From an uncultured Spirochaetota bacterium (GTDB lineage: Bacteria > Spirochaetota > Spirochaetia > SZUA-6 > Fen-1364): a DNA stretch of 64,000 nt. Positions 14,602-20,504 of this stretch are shown piece by piece. The DNA lies in NCBI GenBank assembly GCA_963820525.1, contig CAWGAA010000001.1, positions 1,408,001-1,472,000 on the forward strand. The letters are read 5' to 3'. The translations under genes were made by a program, and so were the position numbers. The first letter of the stretch is position 1. Every line of letters begins with the position of its first letter. Under the pieces are notes generated by a model. The model was not told where the DNA came from. It ran no database searches and saw nothing but the letters and a program-made list of their open reading frames with translations.

Positions 14602-15270
14602 ATGCAGCCCATAAGCTTCAACCTCGCCGACCTGGGACTGGGACAGTGGATTGTCATCGGCTTGAGCGTTCTGGTGGGAGTCTGGTTCGTCGCGGGAATC
14701 GCGGTCAACAGGAGAGTGGGGCGAAGGGCGAGCGCCTGGCTCGCCTCAGGCCTGGATGGGTACACGTGCGGCCAGCCGAGCTGGGTGGACCTGGCCACCG
14801 CCGCGGTAGTGACGAAAGCCGCGCGTCCGGCACTTCCCCTGGAAAGGATTGAGGCGATTTTAGCATTGGAGAGGAGAGAGAACCTTCCTCTCTGGCTTTT
14901 CCAGCACGCGGCTGGAAAACGGGACAGCGTGATCCTGCGCGCGAATCTGAAGAAAAAGCCGGTTTTCGAGGCGCATCTGATTCCTTCAAGTGAATATGCG
15001 CAGATTGCCGCGTATAGTCACCGCGAGCCGCCGCTTCAGAGGGGTGAAGATCGAGATGGATTCACGCTATTCGTCGGCGGAGATGCGAGCGCGCCGGCCA
15101 TCCAGGCCCTTGAAGCGCTCAAGGAGCGTTTCAAAGGATCGCTCATCAGGGTGAGCGTGCGCGGCGAAAGCCCGCACCTGCTTTTGCACGTGAGGCTCGT
15201 CGCGCTGCGCGATGCCTCACCGGCTGTCGCGTTGGCACTGGACGAGATAGCCCGAAAGAGTCAAGCGTAG
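14602..15270 (+). CDS. Single-pass membrane protein resembling CCDC47/PAT1 (DUF1682)
   Basis: N-terminal TM followed by G-x3-N-R..A-x-W and ERIEAILALERRENLPLWLF..KRDSV. Resemblance to CCDC47 was judged by eye. Confidence 0.55.
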   Translation: MQPISFNLADLGLGQWIVIGLSVLVGVWFVAGIAVNRRVGRRASAWLASGLDGYTCGQPSWVDLATAAVVTKAARPALPLERIEAILALERRENLPLWLFQHAAGKRDSVILRANLKKKPVFEAHLIPSSEYAQIAAYSHREPPLQRGEDRDGFTLFVGGDASAPAIQALEALKERFKGSLIRVSVRGESPHLLLHVRLVALRDASPAVALALDEIARKSQA

Positions 15271-15297
15271 AAGGTGCTCGCGGCAGCGGGCGGGCCG

Positions 15298-16275
15298 TTA
15301 TCCGAACAGAAGCCCGGCGGTGCGCTCCAGCATGGGGATGCCCCTGATCTCCGTTTCGAACAGCGGGAGGACTGCCCGCACCCTTTCGTCGAAGAGGCTG
15401 TCGATCTGCTTCATGTACTCTTCCTGCATGGCGACCCTGTTCTTCACGAAATCGGGGATGCCGGCGCCCAGGTCCGTGCGGTCGATCTTCATGTTGACGA
15501 TCACTCCGCCCACGGGGATCCCGAAATCCTTGAACCAGTTGATGAAACGGGTCACCACTGCGATGGGCAGGGCTTCCGGCAGGGTGATGAAAAAGAACGA
15601 GGTGAGCGCTTCGTCCGTGAGGAGCTTCTTCGCGTTGCCCATCCTCTCCCGCAGGCTCACCAGGTATTCCATCAGGGGATCCTTCTCCTTCTTCTTCCTG
15701 CTGTAGGAGAGAAGGTCCTTCAGGCTCATGGCCTCCTCGCGGCTCTTGACCATCTTGTTGACCCACATGGCGTAGACTCCCGACATTCCAAGGAGCCGCC
15801 GGGCATTGGCGGTGGGAGCCGTGTCGAACACATAGGCCTCGTACTTGTCCTCGAACATGAGGTCGATCATGTTCTCGAACATGGCCGACTCCTCGAACGA
15901 AGGGTTCATGGTCGCGGACTCGACGAACTCGTCGGCCTTGGTCTTGAGCTCGGCGTACTTGAGGAACCACTCGATCTTCTCCCGTATCTCCTTTTTGGAT
16001 TTTTCTATCGTGTCGTGCGTGTCGATTTCATAGGCGGACAGGTTGGGATGGCCCGGTATCTGCGTGGGTTTGCCGAACACGTCGAGGTCGAGCATGCCCG
16101 ACAGCGAGTGCACGGGGTTCGTGGAGGCGAGCAGGGTCCTCTTGCCCTGCTGTGCGCACCACAGGGCCGCGGCGCCGGCGAGCACGGTCTTCCCCACCCC
16201 TCCCTTGCCGCCGAAAAACAGGTACTTCAATCCCTTATTTGCAGCCAGGTACTGGCGCATGGTTTTTCCCGTCAT
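15298..16275 (-). CDS. ArsA/Get3/TRC40-family ATPase, subunit B (switch I Asp replaced by Asn)
   Basis: GGKGGVGKT, STNPVHSLS, DTAPTAN and IVN motifs. ATG at 16275 overlaps the upstream stop (ATGA) and has a GGAGG RBS. Confidence 0.9.
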   Translation of the reverse strand: MTGKTMRQYLAANKGLKYLFFGGKGGVGKTVLAGAAALWCAQQGKRTLLASTNPVHSLSGMLDLDVFGKPTQIPGHPNLSAYEIDTHDTIEKSKKEIREKIEWFLKYAELKTKADEFVESATMNPSFEESAMFENMIDLMFEDKYEAYVFDTAPTANARRLLGMSGVYAMWVNKMVKSREEAMSLKDLLSYSRKKKEKDPLMEYLVSLRERMGNAKKLLTDEALTSFFFITLPEALPIAVVTRFINWFKDFGIPVGGVIVNMKIDRTDLGAGIPDFVKNRVAMQEEYMKQIDSLFDERVRAVLPLFETEIRGIPMLERTAGLLFG

Positions 16276-17251
16276 TGCTTGCCTCCGAACAGCGTTTCCG
16301 CCATCTTCTCGATCATCGGCAGCCCCGTGATGTCCCGCTCGAACTCCGGCACCTGGGCGAGGACTTCCCGACCGAACATCAAGTCTATCTGCTCCAAGTG
16401 GCCCTTCTGCATCCGCAGGCGGTTTCTCAGGTACACCGGGATATCCTGGTTGGCCAGCTCCCGCGGGATCACCCGGTTGACGATGTACCCCGACAGCGGA
16501 ACGTTGTATTTTGCGAACATCCCCGCGGCCTTCTTGGTGTCGATGATGATCATCTCCTCGGGAATGAGGACAAAGAAGAAAGCGGTCTTCTGCTTGTCGG
16601 TGAGGATGCCGGACGACATGTTGATCCGGCGCTTGATGAACTGGAGCTCTTTCAGGATCTGGTCCTCCTCGCTTTCCTTTTCCCGCTTCATTACCGCGGC
16701 AACCTGGGAATACTCCTTCATCTCCGCGCGCAATGCGGTAATCTTGTCTATCCACTCGTCGTAGACCGACGCCATGCTGAGGTAGTACAGGGCGTGCCCC
16801 AGGGGCACGAGGTCGTAGATGTAGTAGTCGTATTGGCCGCCCACAACGATGTCGACCACCGCATCGAAGATGGCGCTTTCCTCCATGGCGGGCTCGGCGG
16901 CCGCGGCCTGGATATAGTTCTCGATGTCTTCGGGGACCTTGTCCAGGCCGTACATGTCGAGGATCTTCTTTCTGATCTCATCCTGGTAGTCCTTAATGCG
17001 CTTGTCCGCGTCGATCTCCTGCGCATAGAGGTTGGGGATGATCTCCACGGGCCCTTTCCGAAGATGTCCTTCTGGAAGATGTCGGAGAGGCTCGCCTGCG
17101 GATCCACGGAGAATACCAGCACCTTTTTGCCCTGCTTGGCCAGCCAGTATGCGGTGGTGGCGCTGAAGGTGGTCTTGCCCAGCCCGCCCTTGCCGCCGAA
17201 CATGAGGTAACGGCGGTCGGGGTAGGTTTCAAAGAATTTGCGCAGCGACAT
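16272..17251 (-). CDS. ArsA/Get3/TRC40-family ATPase, subunit A; 1-nt frameshift at ~17050
   Basis: GGKGGLGKTT, SVDPQASLSD, DLVPLGH and IVNRV motifs. Adding one base to the G3 run at 17049-17051 restores ..FGKGPVEIIPNL.. Confidence 0.9.
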
Positions 17252-17272
17252 CGTGATGACTCCTGCAGCTTT

Positions 17273-17566
17273 TCAGGCCAATGCGTCGGTGAGGTCTTTC
17301 TCCCTCAGCATGCGCCGCTTCCAGGTGGAAATCTGGGGCACCACGTAAGGCAGGAGGCGCAGACTGTAGTATGGGGGAAGGATGGGAACGCCCAGCAGGT
17401 CTCCCATGGTGATGAGGATGAATAGATGCTCCATGCTGCCGCGGGTCTTGAGGGCGAAGCGGGCCATGTCGTGCCCGGCCATGCCGTACAGCACGTTCTT
17501 GACCCCCTCCATCAGCTTGCCCTTCTTTTTTTCTTCAGGCTTCTCCTGCGATTTCTCTTCCGGCAT
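17273..17566 (-). CDS. Small CstA-associated protein, paralog 2 (97 aa)
   Basis: AAGGAG RBS; core LFILITMGDLLGVPILPPYYSLRLLPY is shared with the neighbouring paralog. Confidence 0.85.
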   Translation of the reverse strand: MPEEKSQEKPEEKKKGKLMEGVKNVLYGMAGHDMARFALKTRGSMEHLFILITMGDLLGVPILPPYYSLRLLPYVVPQISTWKRRMLREKDLTDALA

Positions 17567-17580
17567 GGTCACTCCTTATT

Positions 17581-17913
17581 CTATGTTATTTCCTGGTCGC
17601 ACAGATCCGTCAGATCCCGCGGGCGTGAGAGGCTGGTCCGCCAGTCTTCGAGGCGGAACGCAACGTAGGGCAAAAGCCGCAGCGTGTAGTACGACGGGAG
17701 CACCGGAACGCCCAGGAGGTCTCCAAAAACGAGCAGGATGAAGAGCTTCTCCCTCTGCCCCCGTTCCTTCTGGACGTCGCGCACCATCTCCCAGATCGTG
17801 GCGCCGTAGAGCATCTGCCAAACGGTGCGGACCGCTTTTTTCAGAAGAGAGCGGAGGCTCCGCAGCCTCCGCCCCCGTCGATCCGTCTTTCCCTCCCTCT
17901 CCCCCTGTCTCAC
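17581..17913 (-). CDS. Small CstA-associated protein, paralog 1 (start uncertain: GTG 17913 overlapping the cstA stop, or ATG 17814)
   Basis: Core LFILLVFGDLLGVPVLPSYYTLRLLPY..W...RDLTD matches paralog 2. Confidence 0.8.
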   Translation of the reverse strand: MRQGEREGKTDRRGRRLRSLRSLLKKAVRTVWQMLYGATIWEMVRDVQKERGQREKLFILLVFGDLLGVPVLPSYYTLRLLPYVAFRLEDWRTSLSRPRDLTDLCDQEIT

Positions 17914-19679
17914 GCGGGCTTCACGGAGGCTGACGCCTGCGCGCGATATTTCCTGAAAACCTTCAAGGCATCCCAGGCCAGGATGAGGCTCGCGGCGATC
18001 AGCACGAGGCACACGGCGCCGATGATGATGTTCGCCGCCATCACCTGACCCACGGCCTGCTTCTGCGCCGCCGCCAGCGCAGCAGCCTTCGGCAGGTTCA
18101 TGAACAGGGCCTCATAGGCCTTGTAGAGCAGGGCGCCGATGGTGGTGATGAACATGAAAACGAATGGCCAGAGCGTCCACTGGTATTTCTTGCCCTTCGA
18201 CATGAGCCATATGGTTGCCAGGAGGAGCGCAAGGGAAGCCATGAGCTGGTTGGCGGCTCCGAACACGACCCAGATCTGCAGGAAAGGCACGATCCAGATC
18301 AAAACGAGCGTCAGAACCAGTGCGAGCAGCGTTCCGACGTGCGCGTTCTTGAGCAGGGGAATCCTGTCTCCCAGCGCCTCGGCGCTGGCCACCCTCATGA
18401 ACCGCGCAACCAGGTACATGATTGTCAGAGCCATGATCGTGAGGAATACCGAGCCATAGGCGGTTCCGAAGCCGGCGCCCAGGATCTTGTCCAGCCCCCA
18501 CTGGTTCATGAAAGCCGACAGGCCCTTGGAGAACACCGCAGCCGCCGCGCCGGCGTTTTTGTAGCCCTGGAAGCTTCCGAATGCCACGGTCGCGGTGAGG
18601 AAGGCAATGATGGCGAAGAACATCTCGAAGAACATCGCCCCGCCGCCCACGAACAGGGCGTCGCTCTCCTTCTCGATCTGGCGCGCCGTTCCCGATGAGG
18701 ACACAAGGCTGTGCCAGCCGGAAACGGCCCCGCAGGCGATGGTGACGAAGAGGATGGGCCACAGGGGCCCCAGCCCGGGCACGGTGAAGGAGGTGAACGC
18801 GGGGAAATCCCCCATGCCCGGCCTCCAGATGAACAGCCCGATCAGGCCGCCGAGCACGCCCAGGGAGACGATCCAGAAGGACACGTAGTTGATGGGTTGG
18901 GCCCAGCGCCAGATGGGAAGCACGGCGCCAAAGTAGCAGATGACGATGACCATCAGGCTTCCGAGGAGCTTGGCCTGCGTGACGGAGAGGAAGACCCCCG
19001 GCCCGGTGGGAAGCTCCTTCGTGATGCCGAAGAGCCCCGTAAAGAAGGTCTTGACACCAGGCAGCGTCCCGACCCAGATGGCCACGAATGCCAGGACCAC
19101 CGTGATGACGGTGGTAAACAGGATGTCGACTTTCCACCGATAGGTCATCTGCCCGGCCAGCAATCCCACAATGATCACGAGGATAACCCCCAGGGGCACG
19201 GCGGGATTGATCAAGAGGCCGAAGCCCACCTGGGTGCCGAAGGCCCCCATGATCAGGAGCAGGTAGAAATAAATGAACATGATCAGGATTCCCCGGGAGC
19301 GCGGCGAGATGAGCTTGTAGCTGAGCGCCCCAAAGCTCTGCCCTTCTTCCCGGAGGCCAAGGATGATGCTGCTGTAGTCCTGAACCCAGCCAATGAAGAA
19401 AGTCCCGAAGATCACCCACAAAAGCGCAGGCACCCATCCCCACAGGACCGCCGTGATGGGCCCGATGATCGGTCCCAGGGCCGCGATGGACTTGAACTGG
19501 TAGCCGAAAAGGACATTGCGGTTGGCCGGCGTGAAGTCGACCCCGTCCATGAACATCTTCGCGGGTGTCGCCTTCTTGTCGTCCGGCTTGATGACCCTCC
19601 TGTCTATCGACTTCGCGTAGACAAAGTACCCGATGGCGATGAACGCCAATCCACATGCCAGGATCACCAATGCATTCAT
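17910..19679 (-). CDS. cstA: Carbon starvation protein A family transporter
   Basis: TPA..DGVDF, FKSIAALGPIIGP, WGWVPALLW, LFVTIACGAVSGWHSL and FGAANQL motifs; many TM helices; AAGGAGG RBS. Confidence 0.92.
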   Translation of the reverse strand: MNALVILACGLAFIAIGYFVYAKSIDRRVIKPDDKKATPAKMFMDGVDFTPANRNVLFGYQFKSIAALGPIIGPITAVLWGWVPALLWVIFGTFFIGWVQDYSSIILGLREEGQSFGALSYKLISPRSRGILIMFIYFYLLLIMGAFGTQVGFGLLINPAVPLGVILVIIVGLLAGQMTYRWKVDILFTTVITVVLAFVAIWVGTLPGVKTFFTGLFGITKELPTGPGVFLSVTQAKLLGSLMVIVICYFGAVLPIWRWAQPINYVSFWIVSLGVLGGLIGLFIWRPGMGDFPAFTSFTVPGLGPLWPILFVTIACGAVSGWHSLVSSSGTARQIEKESDALFVGGGAMFFEMFFAIIAFLTATVAFGSFQGYKNAGAAAAVFSKGLSAFMNQWGLDKILGAGFGTAYGSVFLTIMALTIMYLVARFMRVASAEALGDRIPLLKNAHVGTLLALVLTLVLIWIVPFLQIWVVFGAANQLMASLALLLATIWLMSKGKKYQWTLWPFVFMFITTIGALLYKAYEALFMNLPKAAALAAAQKQAVGQVMAANIIIGAVCLVLIAASLILAWDALKVFRKYRAQASASVKPA

Positions 19680-19907
19680 GATGCCCTCCTTTTTCCCATG
19701 TACTTCACGTATCGATGGCCAGGAACTATGCTTAAGCGGAGTATGTAGGGGATCTTCTTTTGAGGTTTTCACCTCCTGAAGTTTTGCTTGGGGGAACTCT
19801 ATCCCCATGTCAAGAAATGTGTATGATAATTCGTTTGTCGGGGAATAGTACCCCGGCTCCGGCCGTATTGCAAGTGCATTTTCTCGAGCAGGATACAGGA
19901 GCCATCA

Positions 19908-20504
19908 ATGAAAGAATCCTTGATCCTCCTTCTCACCGCGCTTCTCTTCGCGACCCTCTTCAATCTCCTGTGCATCCTGCGCCGGGAGGGAATCTCCCGG
20001 CGTTTTCTCCTGGAAACGGCTGCGATCACGATCGTTTTCGGGCTCCTGCCGATGTTCGGCGTGGCTCTTCACCCCATTGCGTTTCTAGCGATTCTCTACG
20101 TGCTCACGATGCGCGTGCGGCTTTTCATCGATTTGGGCAGCACCCTGGCGCGCCGGGGAAACCTCACCGCCGCAGGCAGGGCTTTTTCCCTTGCCGGGCG
20201 GCTCTGGCCCGACCCCGCCGGGGTTTTGATGGTGCGCCTCAATCAAGGGGCGTGCGCCCTTCAGCGCCAAGCTCCCGAAGAAGCGATTCCCCTGCTCCAG
20301 GGAGTGCTCGAGGCAGCCGAATCGGCGCGGCTTGGCATCAAGTACCGCTCCGCCTGTCATTACAACCTGGGCATCGCCTTCTGGCGGAAAGGCATGAGAC
20401 CGGAGGCCGAGCGGGAGCTGGAAGCGGTCCAGGATCTGTGGCCGGCCTCCACGTATGCTCGTAAGGCGGAAAAAACCCTGGAGAGGCTCCGCGAGGGCGG
20501 ATAA
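19908..20504 (+). CDS. Membrane-anchored tetratricopeptide repeat protein
   Basis: About 3 hydrophobic N-terminal segments followed by TPR-like helices (LGSTLARRG..A, HYNLGIAF..A). Confidence 0.75.
   Translation: MKESLILLLTALLFATLFNLLCILRREGISRRFLLETAAITIVFGLLPMFGVALHPIAFLAILYVLTMRVRLFIDLGSTLARRGNLTAAGRAFSLAGRLWPDPAGVLMVRLNQGACALQRQAPEEAIPLLQGVLEAAESARLGIKYRSACHYNLGIAFWRKGMRPEAERELEAVQDLWPASTYARKAEKTLERLREGG

Follow-up and report, generated by a model that had tools for sequence, protein, structure and literature searches.

Why should a permease of the CstA family be encoded together with two small paralogous proteins and a pair of ATPases of the Get3/ArsA class? The question is raised by positions 14602 to 20504 of a 64,000-nucleotide (nt) stretch of contig CAWGAA010000001.1 (assembly GCA_963820525.1, an uncultured Spirochaetota bacterium), the whole of which is called here the window. 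The cluster is a real, conserved module of the published cstA-cstX-arsA-homologue kind, and the copy in the window is an ordinary one: one more member, in which a single gene probably contains an assembly error. A preliminary description had taken the locus for a candidate undescribed system and, in one of its two models, had an ATPase heterodimer dock on CstA through two adaptors to energise or gate it, but both the cluster and this model are already present, drawn from genome comparisons, in Castillo and Saier (2010; Int J Microbiol 2010:187373, PMC2963123). The locus comprises five minus-strand genes in the order cstA, X1, X2, ATPase A and ATPase B, and two plus-strand genes on the flanks (lengths in amino acids, aa):

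17910-19679, minus strand: cstA, CstA-family permease, 589 aa (Pfam PF02554, 3e-113)
17581-17814, minus strand: X1, CstX-type small protein, 77 aa from ATG 17814; paralogue of X2
17273-17572, minus strand: X2, CstX-type small protein, 97-99 aa; paralogue of X1, homologues tagged PF25952.1
16272-17251, minus strand: ATPase A, Get3/ArsA class, ~326 aa read through a frameshift (PF02374, TIGR00345)
15298-16275, minus strand: ATPase B, Get3/ArsA class, 325 aa (PF02374, TIGR00345)
14602-15270, plus strand: mini-CCDC47-like protein by predicted fold (the 14602 protein), 222 aa; convergent with ATPase B, 27 nt between them
19908-20504, plus strand: tetratricopeptide repeat (TPR) membrane protein, 198 aa, matching TPR_12; divergent from cstA across a 228-nt spacer

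Conservation, origin and published relatives

A scan of one genome per species for relatives of X2 matched at least 605 stretches, at least 588 of which encode a relative. The best 80 loci (L001-L080) were kept and searched by tblastn with the window proteins, and gene content was counted in the 46 of them with room, that is, with at least 4.5 kb upstream and at least 3.8 kb downstream. The genes for CstA, two X proteins and both ATPases were found together in 43 of these 46 loci, with the order cstA-X1-X2-A-B kept, and cstA with at least one X gene and both ATPases in 45, so the synteny whose absence was to have refuted the original proposal is conserved. The TPR gene accompanies them in 41/46 loci (divergent upstream of cstA in 23 and directly downstream of ATPase B in 18), and a gene of the 14602 type in 17/46. 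Since the order is kept, the families co-occur and the gene junctions are tight, the module can be regarded as one unit. A single X gene is present in 9/80 loci, six of which are uncut by a contig end (L039, L050, L058, L060, L068 and L076); all six retain two ATPases, which weakens the suggestion that a count of two small proteins and two ATPases means one adaptor per ATPase. Five of the six form one clade in the CstA tree, from which L060 was left out.

Median identity to the window proteins was 83% for X2, 79-82% for ATPase A, 74% for ATPase B, 65% for CstA, 61% for X1, 41% for the TPR protein and 29% for the 14602-type protein, the medians being taken over 66 CstA orthologues, 71 X1 orthologues and 80 X2 loci. 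By this sequence measure, constraint within the module is strongest on X2 and ATPase A. The small proteins are also numerous, as X2 has homologues in 6011 clusters (90% identity) at E<=1e-3, and a profile search of every 50%-identity representative returned 475 clusters for the X family. Within the window's own phylum, the family was found in only 6/301 sampled genomes, and the window CstA is sister to that of a metagenome-assembled genome labelled Spirochaetota, the pair being nested in Chloroflexota with support 100/99 (midpoint root, submitters' taxon labels). Because of this rarity and this nesting, the module was probably acquired horizontally. Flanking synteny between the window and the closest loci is weak, and none of those loci therefore belongs to a close relative of the window's genome.

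The assignment of cstA in the preliminary description was borne out by the match to PF02554 (379.9 bits against a cut-off of 27), which covers profile positions 1-353 and 408-560. It is the sole CstA-family gene of the genome, and its ATG at 19679 is preceded 6 nt upstream by the Shine-Dalgarno sequence AAGGAGG; a sequence search returned no solved structure related to CstA. All seven genes described for the locus are real, although the split of ATPase A by a frameshift had been overlooked. Their spacing was said to be overlapping or below 25 nt throughout, and this holds from X1 onward, with 8-14 nt between X1 and X2, 21 nt between X2 and ATPase A, and a 4-nt overlap (ATGA) of the ATPase A stop with the ATPase B start. 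It does not hold between cstA and X1, where 95 nt separate the cstA stop from ATG 17814, the first canonical start, or a 103-nt overlap results instead if X1 starts at GTG 18012. Homology of X1 to its relatives extends ~18 codons upstream of ATG 17814, to ~17868, where only CTG codons are available; X2 starts at GTG 17572 (99 aa) or, more likely, at ATG 17566 (97 aa) behind AGGAG. Scanning for promoters and terminators gave nothing promoter-like and, at any usable position, nothing terminator-like. In the gap between the cstA stop and X1, positions 17851-17863 of the minus strand match the consensus of a G+C-rich hairpin (five pairs) followed by a T-rich run, and this element could set the ratio of cstA to the downstream genes.

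The paper of Castillo and Saier (2010) reports 26 clusters of cstA with an ArsA homologue, 24 of them with a CstX of ~90 aa that is never found without CstA, and, in five archaea, a CstY of ~210 aa with one transmembrane segment. Adjacent ArsA homologue pairs were recorded there in Pyrobaculum arsenaticum and Symbiobacterium thermophilum, and two CstX paralogues in P. arsenaticum and Thermococcus kodakarensis; the trees of CstA, CstX and the ArsA homologues were found to match, and it was proposed that the ArsA homologue energises CstA by ATP hydrolysis, with CstX as a linker. The window, which comes closest to ArsA 'cluster 15' with its two adjacent ArsA homologues, shares with these operons the CstA permease, the ~90-aa proteins with one hydrophobic segment, the ~330-aa single-domain ArsA homologues, the absence of arsenic genes from the operon and the proposed mechanism, as well as the doubling of ArsA and CstX that occurs in some of them: a PF02554 gene stands beside two same-strand PF02374 genes encoding ATPases of 325 and ~326 aa. 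The putative equivalence of the window X proteins to the published CstX, and of the 14602 protein to CstY, rests on position, size and family tags. Neither 'TPR' nor 'tetratricopeptide' occurs in PMC2963123, and the TPR membrane protein is therefore an addition to the published module. The assignment of a CCDC47-type fold, as modelled, is a further one, and the Asp/Asn asymmetry of the two ATPases and the size that the family reaches (at least 588 stretches) go beyond the 2010 account in its accessible portions. In open-access text we found no later paper or experiment on the cstA-cstX-arsA module, no other paper linking CstA to ArsA or Get3, and none on PF25952.

The ATPase pair and the break in ATPase A

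Both ATPases belong to the ArsA/Get3 family, as had been claimed: ATPase B matches PF02374 at 1.7e-65 and the two pieces of ATPase A at 4.5e-43 and 7.4e-19, and TIGR00345 (cut-off 135 bits) scores B at 209.8 bits and the C piece of A at 152.6. The two paralogues carry distinct and strongly conserved motifs. The deviant Walker A motif reads GGKGGLGKTT in 78/79 orthologues of A and GGKGGVGKTV in 71/78 best ATPase-B matches (6/78 show the motif of A and fall on A), and the P-loop of the window ATPase B is intact. Switch I of A keeps its Asp (SVDPQASL in 78/79), with a divergent switch II (YDLVPLGHALYYL in 74/75), whereas in B an Asn replaces the catalytic Asp (STNPVHSL in 73/74 true orthologues) and switch II reads DTAPTANARRLL, with DTAPT kept and GH lost, in 70 true orthologues and, with one change, in 2 more. 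Since both keep the deviant Walker A motif, both should bind ATP, and, given the Asn of B, the pair probably has one hydrolytic site. From these motifs we infer that A and B form an obligate heterodimer.

By sequence, the closest chains of known structure are those of the archaeal Get3 proteins 3ug6 and 3zq6, at E-values of 4e-50 to 6e-56 (~4e-50 for B), followed by E. coli ArsA (1f48, ~1e-30), eukaryotic Get3 (1e-19 to 1e-28) and 6bs3 (4e-8 to 5e-6). With the archaeal and eukaryotic Get3/TRC40 proteins, the window ATPases share single-domain chains and the helical subdomain after switch II; they differ in being two diverged paralogues instead of a homodimer, in the Asn at the catalytic Asp of one subunit and in their strict link to one transporter gene, which is not a feature of Get3, and no receptor of the Get1/Get2 type was identified for the module. 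The reported absence of the Get3 CxxC hinge was upheld by alignment to 3ug6 and 3zq6: where archaeal Get3 has CDFC or CEFC, the window ATPase B has IPDFV, the L004 orthologue of A has IPEYL and the window piece of A, by eye, has IPVYL, and the hinge is therefore absent. The reported Cys count, none in A and one in B, is likewise correct, and 72/79 C pieces of A and 48/79 best ATPase-B matches, a few of which fall on A, are Cys-free. An adjacent pair of Get3-like ATPases is also known in BagA/BagB (Rv3679/Rv3680 of Mycobacterium tuberculosis; names from NCBIfam), whose two different chains were solved together as 6bs3, the similarity to the module ATPases being distant. BagA/BagB are described as protecting against glycerol and nitric oxide stress, and are not known to be linked to cstA or CstX.

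The family names alone (Pfam ArsA_ATPase, TIGR00345) favor a classical ArsA role in arsenic or antimony resistance, which we consider extremely improbable. The metalloid site of ArsA needs three Cys, and the window ATPases are single-domain chains of ~325 aa that reach 97.1 bits against the 650-bit cut-off of the ArsA equivalog TIGR04291, in an operon without an arsenic gene. The module shares with ArsA-ArsB the ATPase superfamily and the idea of a soluble ATPase that attaches to a secondary carrier, which thereby becomes ATP-driven; however, ArsA is a single chain of ~580-640 aa built from two homologous halves, with metalloid-binding Cys and the partners ArsD and ArsB or Acr3, whereas the module has two separate chains, another carrier family and small adaptor proteins. 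In addition, the genome has a canonical arsenic locus of its own, ~180 kb from the module and outside the window (G000:C1:1234701-1242818), with arsR-arsD-arsA (arsD PF06953, 2e-28; a 640-aa two-domain arsA, PF02374, 3.7e-147) and, ~5 kb beyond, acr3 (TIGR00832, 436.7 bits), and an ArsB-like gene on another contig. This separate locus argues against an arsenic role of the module. The earlier statement that the window has no arsB, acr3, arsC, arsD or arsR holds for the ArsB-like gene, acr3 and arsD of the genome, which lie outside it as the two-domain arsA does; the scan of the window did not extend to arsC and arsR.

A one-base shift at ~17048-17052 splits ATPase A into an N piece (17048-17251), which holds the P-loop and ends ...GKGPW, and a C piece (16272-17048), which begins VEIIPNLYAQEID. 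In all 79 related loci that have both pieces, these adjoin each other in a single frame. When Logan contigs of four sequencing runs were aligned to 16600-17500, near-identical contigs of three of them, from three studies (run labels X1, X3 and X4), had one extra base behind 17051, with which the frame reads ...GKGPVEII...; in one 208-nt contig, this base is the sole difference from the window. Because the missing base is carried by contigs of three runs and ATPase A is intact in 79/79 relatives, the frameshift is probably an assembly (consensus) error. A genuine frameshift, by which ATPase A would be a fresh pseudogene and the module dead in this organism, or which would be a strain-specific mutation, is distinctly unlikely: the window sequence as given does have the shift, and the genome (5.05 Mb in 4 contigs) is perhaps a long-read assembly, whose consensus can be right or wrong, but the intact relatives, the frame-restoring base and the open frames of all other module genes speak against it.

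The small proteins and the flanking membrane proteins

X1 and X2 are 50% identical over 78 residues (E 1e-25), which bears out their description as paralogues. X2 is better conserved than any other protein of the module, with 52 invariant columns across 34 sequences, and its best 120 homologues, at 79-95% identity, all carry the precomputed tag PF25952.1 (120/120). Each X protein has one short hydrophobic stretch with an Asp in its centre, LFIL(I/L)..GDLLGVP(I/V)LP, followed by PYY.LRLLPYV and a basic helix; the Kyte-Doolittle maximum over 19 residues is 1.89 for X1 and 1.59 for X2, which is marginal for a membrane helix. A model of the X2 monomer had low confidence (pLDDT 57, pTM 0.22, helices only), and this poor solo fold fits a protein that would fold only on its partners. 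The nearest NCBIfam model, NF041419 ('cory-CC-star', a name that presumably refers to a Cys-Cys end), scored 38.6 bits for X1 and 33.2 for X2, both under the 80-bit cut-off, and the window tails (...QEIT in X1, ...DALA in X2) do not end in Cys-Cys. X2 is Cys-free in 78/80 loci and X1 in 23/80. The proteins are also distinct from the small partners of the E. coli transporters: YbdD and YjiX belong to DUF466 (PF04328), and neither the X proteins, even at E<=10, nor any protein of the whole genome matched PF04328.

A search for longer X2-containing proteins gave 39 matches, among which no CstA-X fusion was found, although this is weak evidence. Three apparent fusions of X2 with ArsA (P0153, P0157 and P0144) were considered as Rosetta-stone evidence and rejected, since they are out-of-frame or intergenic read-through, that is, frameshift or gene-calling artefacts. 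In P0125 and P0128, the X2 domain is preceded by ~90-130 aa that look thioredoxin-like by eye (...FPTV/FPTL...) and are possibly truncated at the start. In a recurrent form of ~196-200 aa (P0138, P0142 and relatives), the single X domain follows an additional N-terminal domain of ~110 aa, and the matches of P0350 and P0411 are confined to this N-terminal domain. Some X homologues end in HEHHLHG. Natural tandem X-X proteins also occur, and MAFFT aligned all single-domain sequences to their second half only.

Beside cstA, the presence of a TPR membrane protein was confirmed by its match to Pfam TPR_12 (1.3e-9) and by hydropathy, with about three N-terminal hydrophobic segments (2-26, 32-70 and 56-77) and Arg-rich loops before the TPR repeats, a layout that, by the positive-inside rule, would place the TPR domain in the cytoplasm. 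Many X1 orthologues end in an acidic tail, DLTDLCDQEIT, which the TPR domain might clamp to judge from the sequences. The TPR gene is present in 41/44 two-X loci with room and in 0/2 one-X loci; since the one-X loci all belong to one clade, this co-occurrence of X1 and the TPR gene counts as a single evolutionary event.

The 14602 protein carries a single hydrophobic helix in its N-terminal part and then an alpha/beta domain, probably cytoplasmic, and it ends with this globular domain. Its 293 clusters of homologues are all annotated 'hypothetical', the named ones coming from Chloroflexi, and Pfam and NCBIfam gave no match, nor did a PDB profile search give anything significant. The AlphaFold2 model, made from an alignment with 20 orthologues (pLDDT 89.2, pTM 0.82), had as its top Foldseek matches in the PDB 7tm3_4 (9e-8), 9i78_4 (4.2e-7) and 6w6l_7 (4.6e-3), all three from entries of multipass or TMCO1/SND3 translocons; 9i78_4 carries the name CCDC47 in the PDB profile search, and we take 7tm3_4 and 6w6l_7, from the content of their entries, to be CCDC47 chains as well. 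The match covers CCDC47 residues 135-395, a membrane helix and the globular domain. Mycobacterial TtfA (6t84), a membrane-anchored helper of a transporter, came next at 5.8e-3, and all other rows had a probability <0.25. An Atlas feature score of 0.80 (rank 22) for the CCDC47 link serves as a lead only. By contrast, PF07946 (CCDC47) did not match the 14602 protein even at E<=10, and matched 1/21 members of its family at E 0.054. The label 'CCDC47-like' is thus good at the level of predicted fold only, the sequence evidence being weak, and does not extend to family membership. Compared with CCDC47 of the multipass translocon and of the PAT complex, where Asterix is its partner, the protein has ~10% sequence identity and lacks the luminal domain and the C-terminal ribosome-binding coiled coil (described in PMC7505659). 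In open-access text, no paper was found that treats TtfA together with CCDC47, and, among the matches listed, no report of a prokaryotic CCDC47 homologue. Of five genomes that lack an adjacent 14602-type gene, two proved by profile search to have one at another place and three gave no match, which, together with its presence in 17/46 loci, makes it an optional accessory. An open reading frame downstream of ATPase B in L076 was considered as a further member of the 14602 family and rejected (hhalign probability 0.2; its neighbours are radical-SAM genes).

Possible roles in driving, assembling or regulating CstA

We favor a sharper form of the published idea, in which an ATP-driven switch made of ATPases A and B, coupled through CstX, drives or gates uptake by CstA; it is plausible but tentative, and we place it a little below an even chance. 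The CstA carrier, for which homology to E. coli CstA and BtsT suggests pyruvate, another small carboxylate or peptides as the probable substrate, would be served on its cytoplasmic face by this switch, all accessory domains being cytoplasmic. The switch would be an obligate heterodimer of two SIMIBI ATPases of the Get3/ArsA class, both binding ATP, with hydrolysis at A only. X1 and X2, each with a short helix of marginal hydrophobicity that lies between amphipathic and basic ones, would act as couplers, anchored at CstA or the membrane and offering their cytoplasmic helices to the ATPase dimer, so that its ATP-dependent closing and opening would be relayed to CstA and would drive or gate transport, as ArsA makes ArsB an ATP-driven pump. 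The TPR and mini-CCDC47 proteins may be lineage-specific membrane-anchored scaffolds or assembly aids. We infer all the physical contacts of this scheme, as we do the heterodimer, the substrate and the direction of coupling. Precedents for the scheme are the matching trees of the 2010 paper and two cases from the same transporter family in E. coli: YbdD, encoded beside cstA, is needed for pyruvate uptake by CstA, which drops to 13% of the wild-type level when cstA is missing and to 20% when ybdD is (Hwang 2018; PMC5847655), and the btsT-yjiX-yjiA operon has the same order of transporter, small protein and SIMIBI-class P-loop NTPase, although YjiA is a G3E GTPase and not an ArsA/Get3 ATPase.

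Several observations weigh against this scheme. The nearest solved relatives of the ATPases are archaeal Get3 proteins, with E. coli ArsA only at ~1e-30, and the modelled CCDC47-type neighbour points to membrane-protein biogenesis. E. coli CstA and BtsT act as carriers without such ATPases, and energisation is therefore not intrinsic to the family. The hydrophobic segment of the X proteins is marginal (Kyte-Doolittle maximum 1.59-1.89), the conservation of X2 tracks that of ATPase A more than that of CstA, a sequence pattern that also fits an ATPase cofactor never touching CstA, and the matching trees of 2010, which follow a single common phylogeny, say little about contact.

The main rival is a dedicated assembly machine, a possible though somewhat unlikely explanation, in which the A/B heterodimer would capture the hydrophobic helix of new CstX post-translationally and deliver it to the membrane, and the mini-CCDC47 protein, perhaps with the TPR protein, would help to join CstX with multipass CstA, so that the ATPases would take part in biogenesis and not in each transport cycle. 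Its premise is that CstX, at ~90 aa, would be too short for co-translational targeting. Only ~33 residues follow the X2 helix (~50-66), which would leave the ribosome at about termination. The archaeal 3ug6 and 3zq6 proteins, which are closer than ArsA, are described as tail-anchor-binding chaperones and not transport energisers, and an Asn at the switch-I Asp, as in B, is reported to turn yeast Get3 into a substrate trap. The CCDC47/TtfA-type predicted fold of the 14602 protein agrees with it too, and gives some support to the second model of the preliminary description, a biogenesis module resembling eukaryotic GET plus PAT. However, an insertase role, general or dedicated, leaves the high conservation of X2 and ATPase A above all other parts unexplained; the CCDC47-like gene is not a fixed part of the module (17/46 loci, and no match in 3/5 further genomes); the stretch of A and B that corresponds to the Met-rich lid of archaeal Get3 is, by eye, shorter and more charged; the hydrophobic segment of X lies away from the extreme C-terminus; and the CxxC hinge is absent. 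A more specific form, in which a Get3-like dimer with one active site would hand CstX hydrophobic hairpins to a receptor of mini-CCDC47 and TPR proteins for building onto CstA, as an assembly machine for one transporter, is unlikely; if true, it would be a present-day prokaryotic relation of the GET and PAT systems of eukaryotes. The driving or gating of CstA and its assembly are readings that can overlap. Quite improbable, finally, is a soluble regulatory or cofactor unit, in which CstX would be a cytoplasmic partner of the ATPases, like ArsD for ArsA or the metal partners of YjiA-type GTPases, and would sense or deliver a metal, thiol or redox signal, CstA expression or activity being controlled indirectly. 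It would account for the conservation of X2 with ATPase A, and it is in keeping with 'cory-CC-star' as the nearest NCBIfam model, with the HEHHLHG ends of some X homologues, with the thioredoxin-type N-terminal part seen by eye in some X2 homologues, and with the Cys-Cys or Cys-Sec ends of small partners of CstA-family genes elsewhere, such as YbdD, YjiX and a Campylobacter homologue (Haft 2022 preprint). Against it stand the Cys-free X2 of 78/80 loci and X1 of 23/80, the window tails ALA (X2) and EIT (X1), the hydrophobic helix in every X protein and the published observation (PMC2963123) that CstX does not occur without CstA.

The role of prokaryotic Get3 homologues is still unsettled, and the term 'carbon starvation' does not occur in a 2019 survey of Get3-like proteins. 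The module described here ties a Get3-like ATPase pair to one defined transporter and a tiny, near-invariant partner, in hundreds of bacterial species and, according to the 2010 paper (PMC2963123), in archaea too, and as a system it is open to a clean genetic and biochemical test and worth an experiment. If the ATPases drive or gate CstA, the module would be a second case of the ArsAB type, in which a carrier becomes an ATP-driven pump, with consequences for how energy-poor anaerobes scavenge nutrients. If they assemble CstA, it would be a prokaryotic counterpart of the eukaryotic GET and PAT systems, and such dedicated assembly would be the first cellular job assigned to bacterial and archaeal Get3 homologues.

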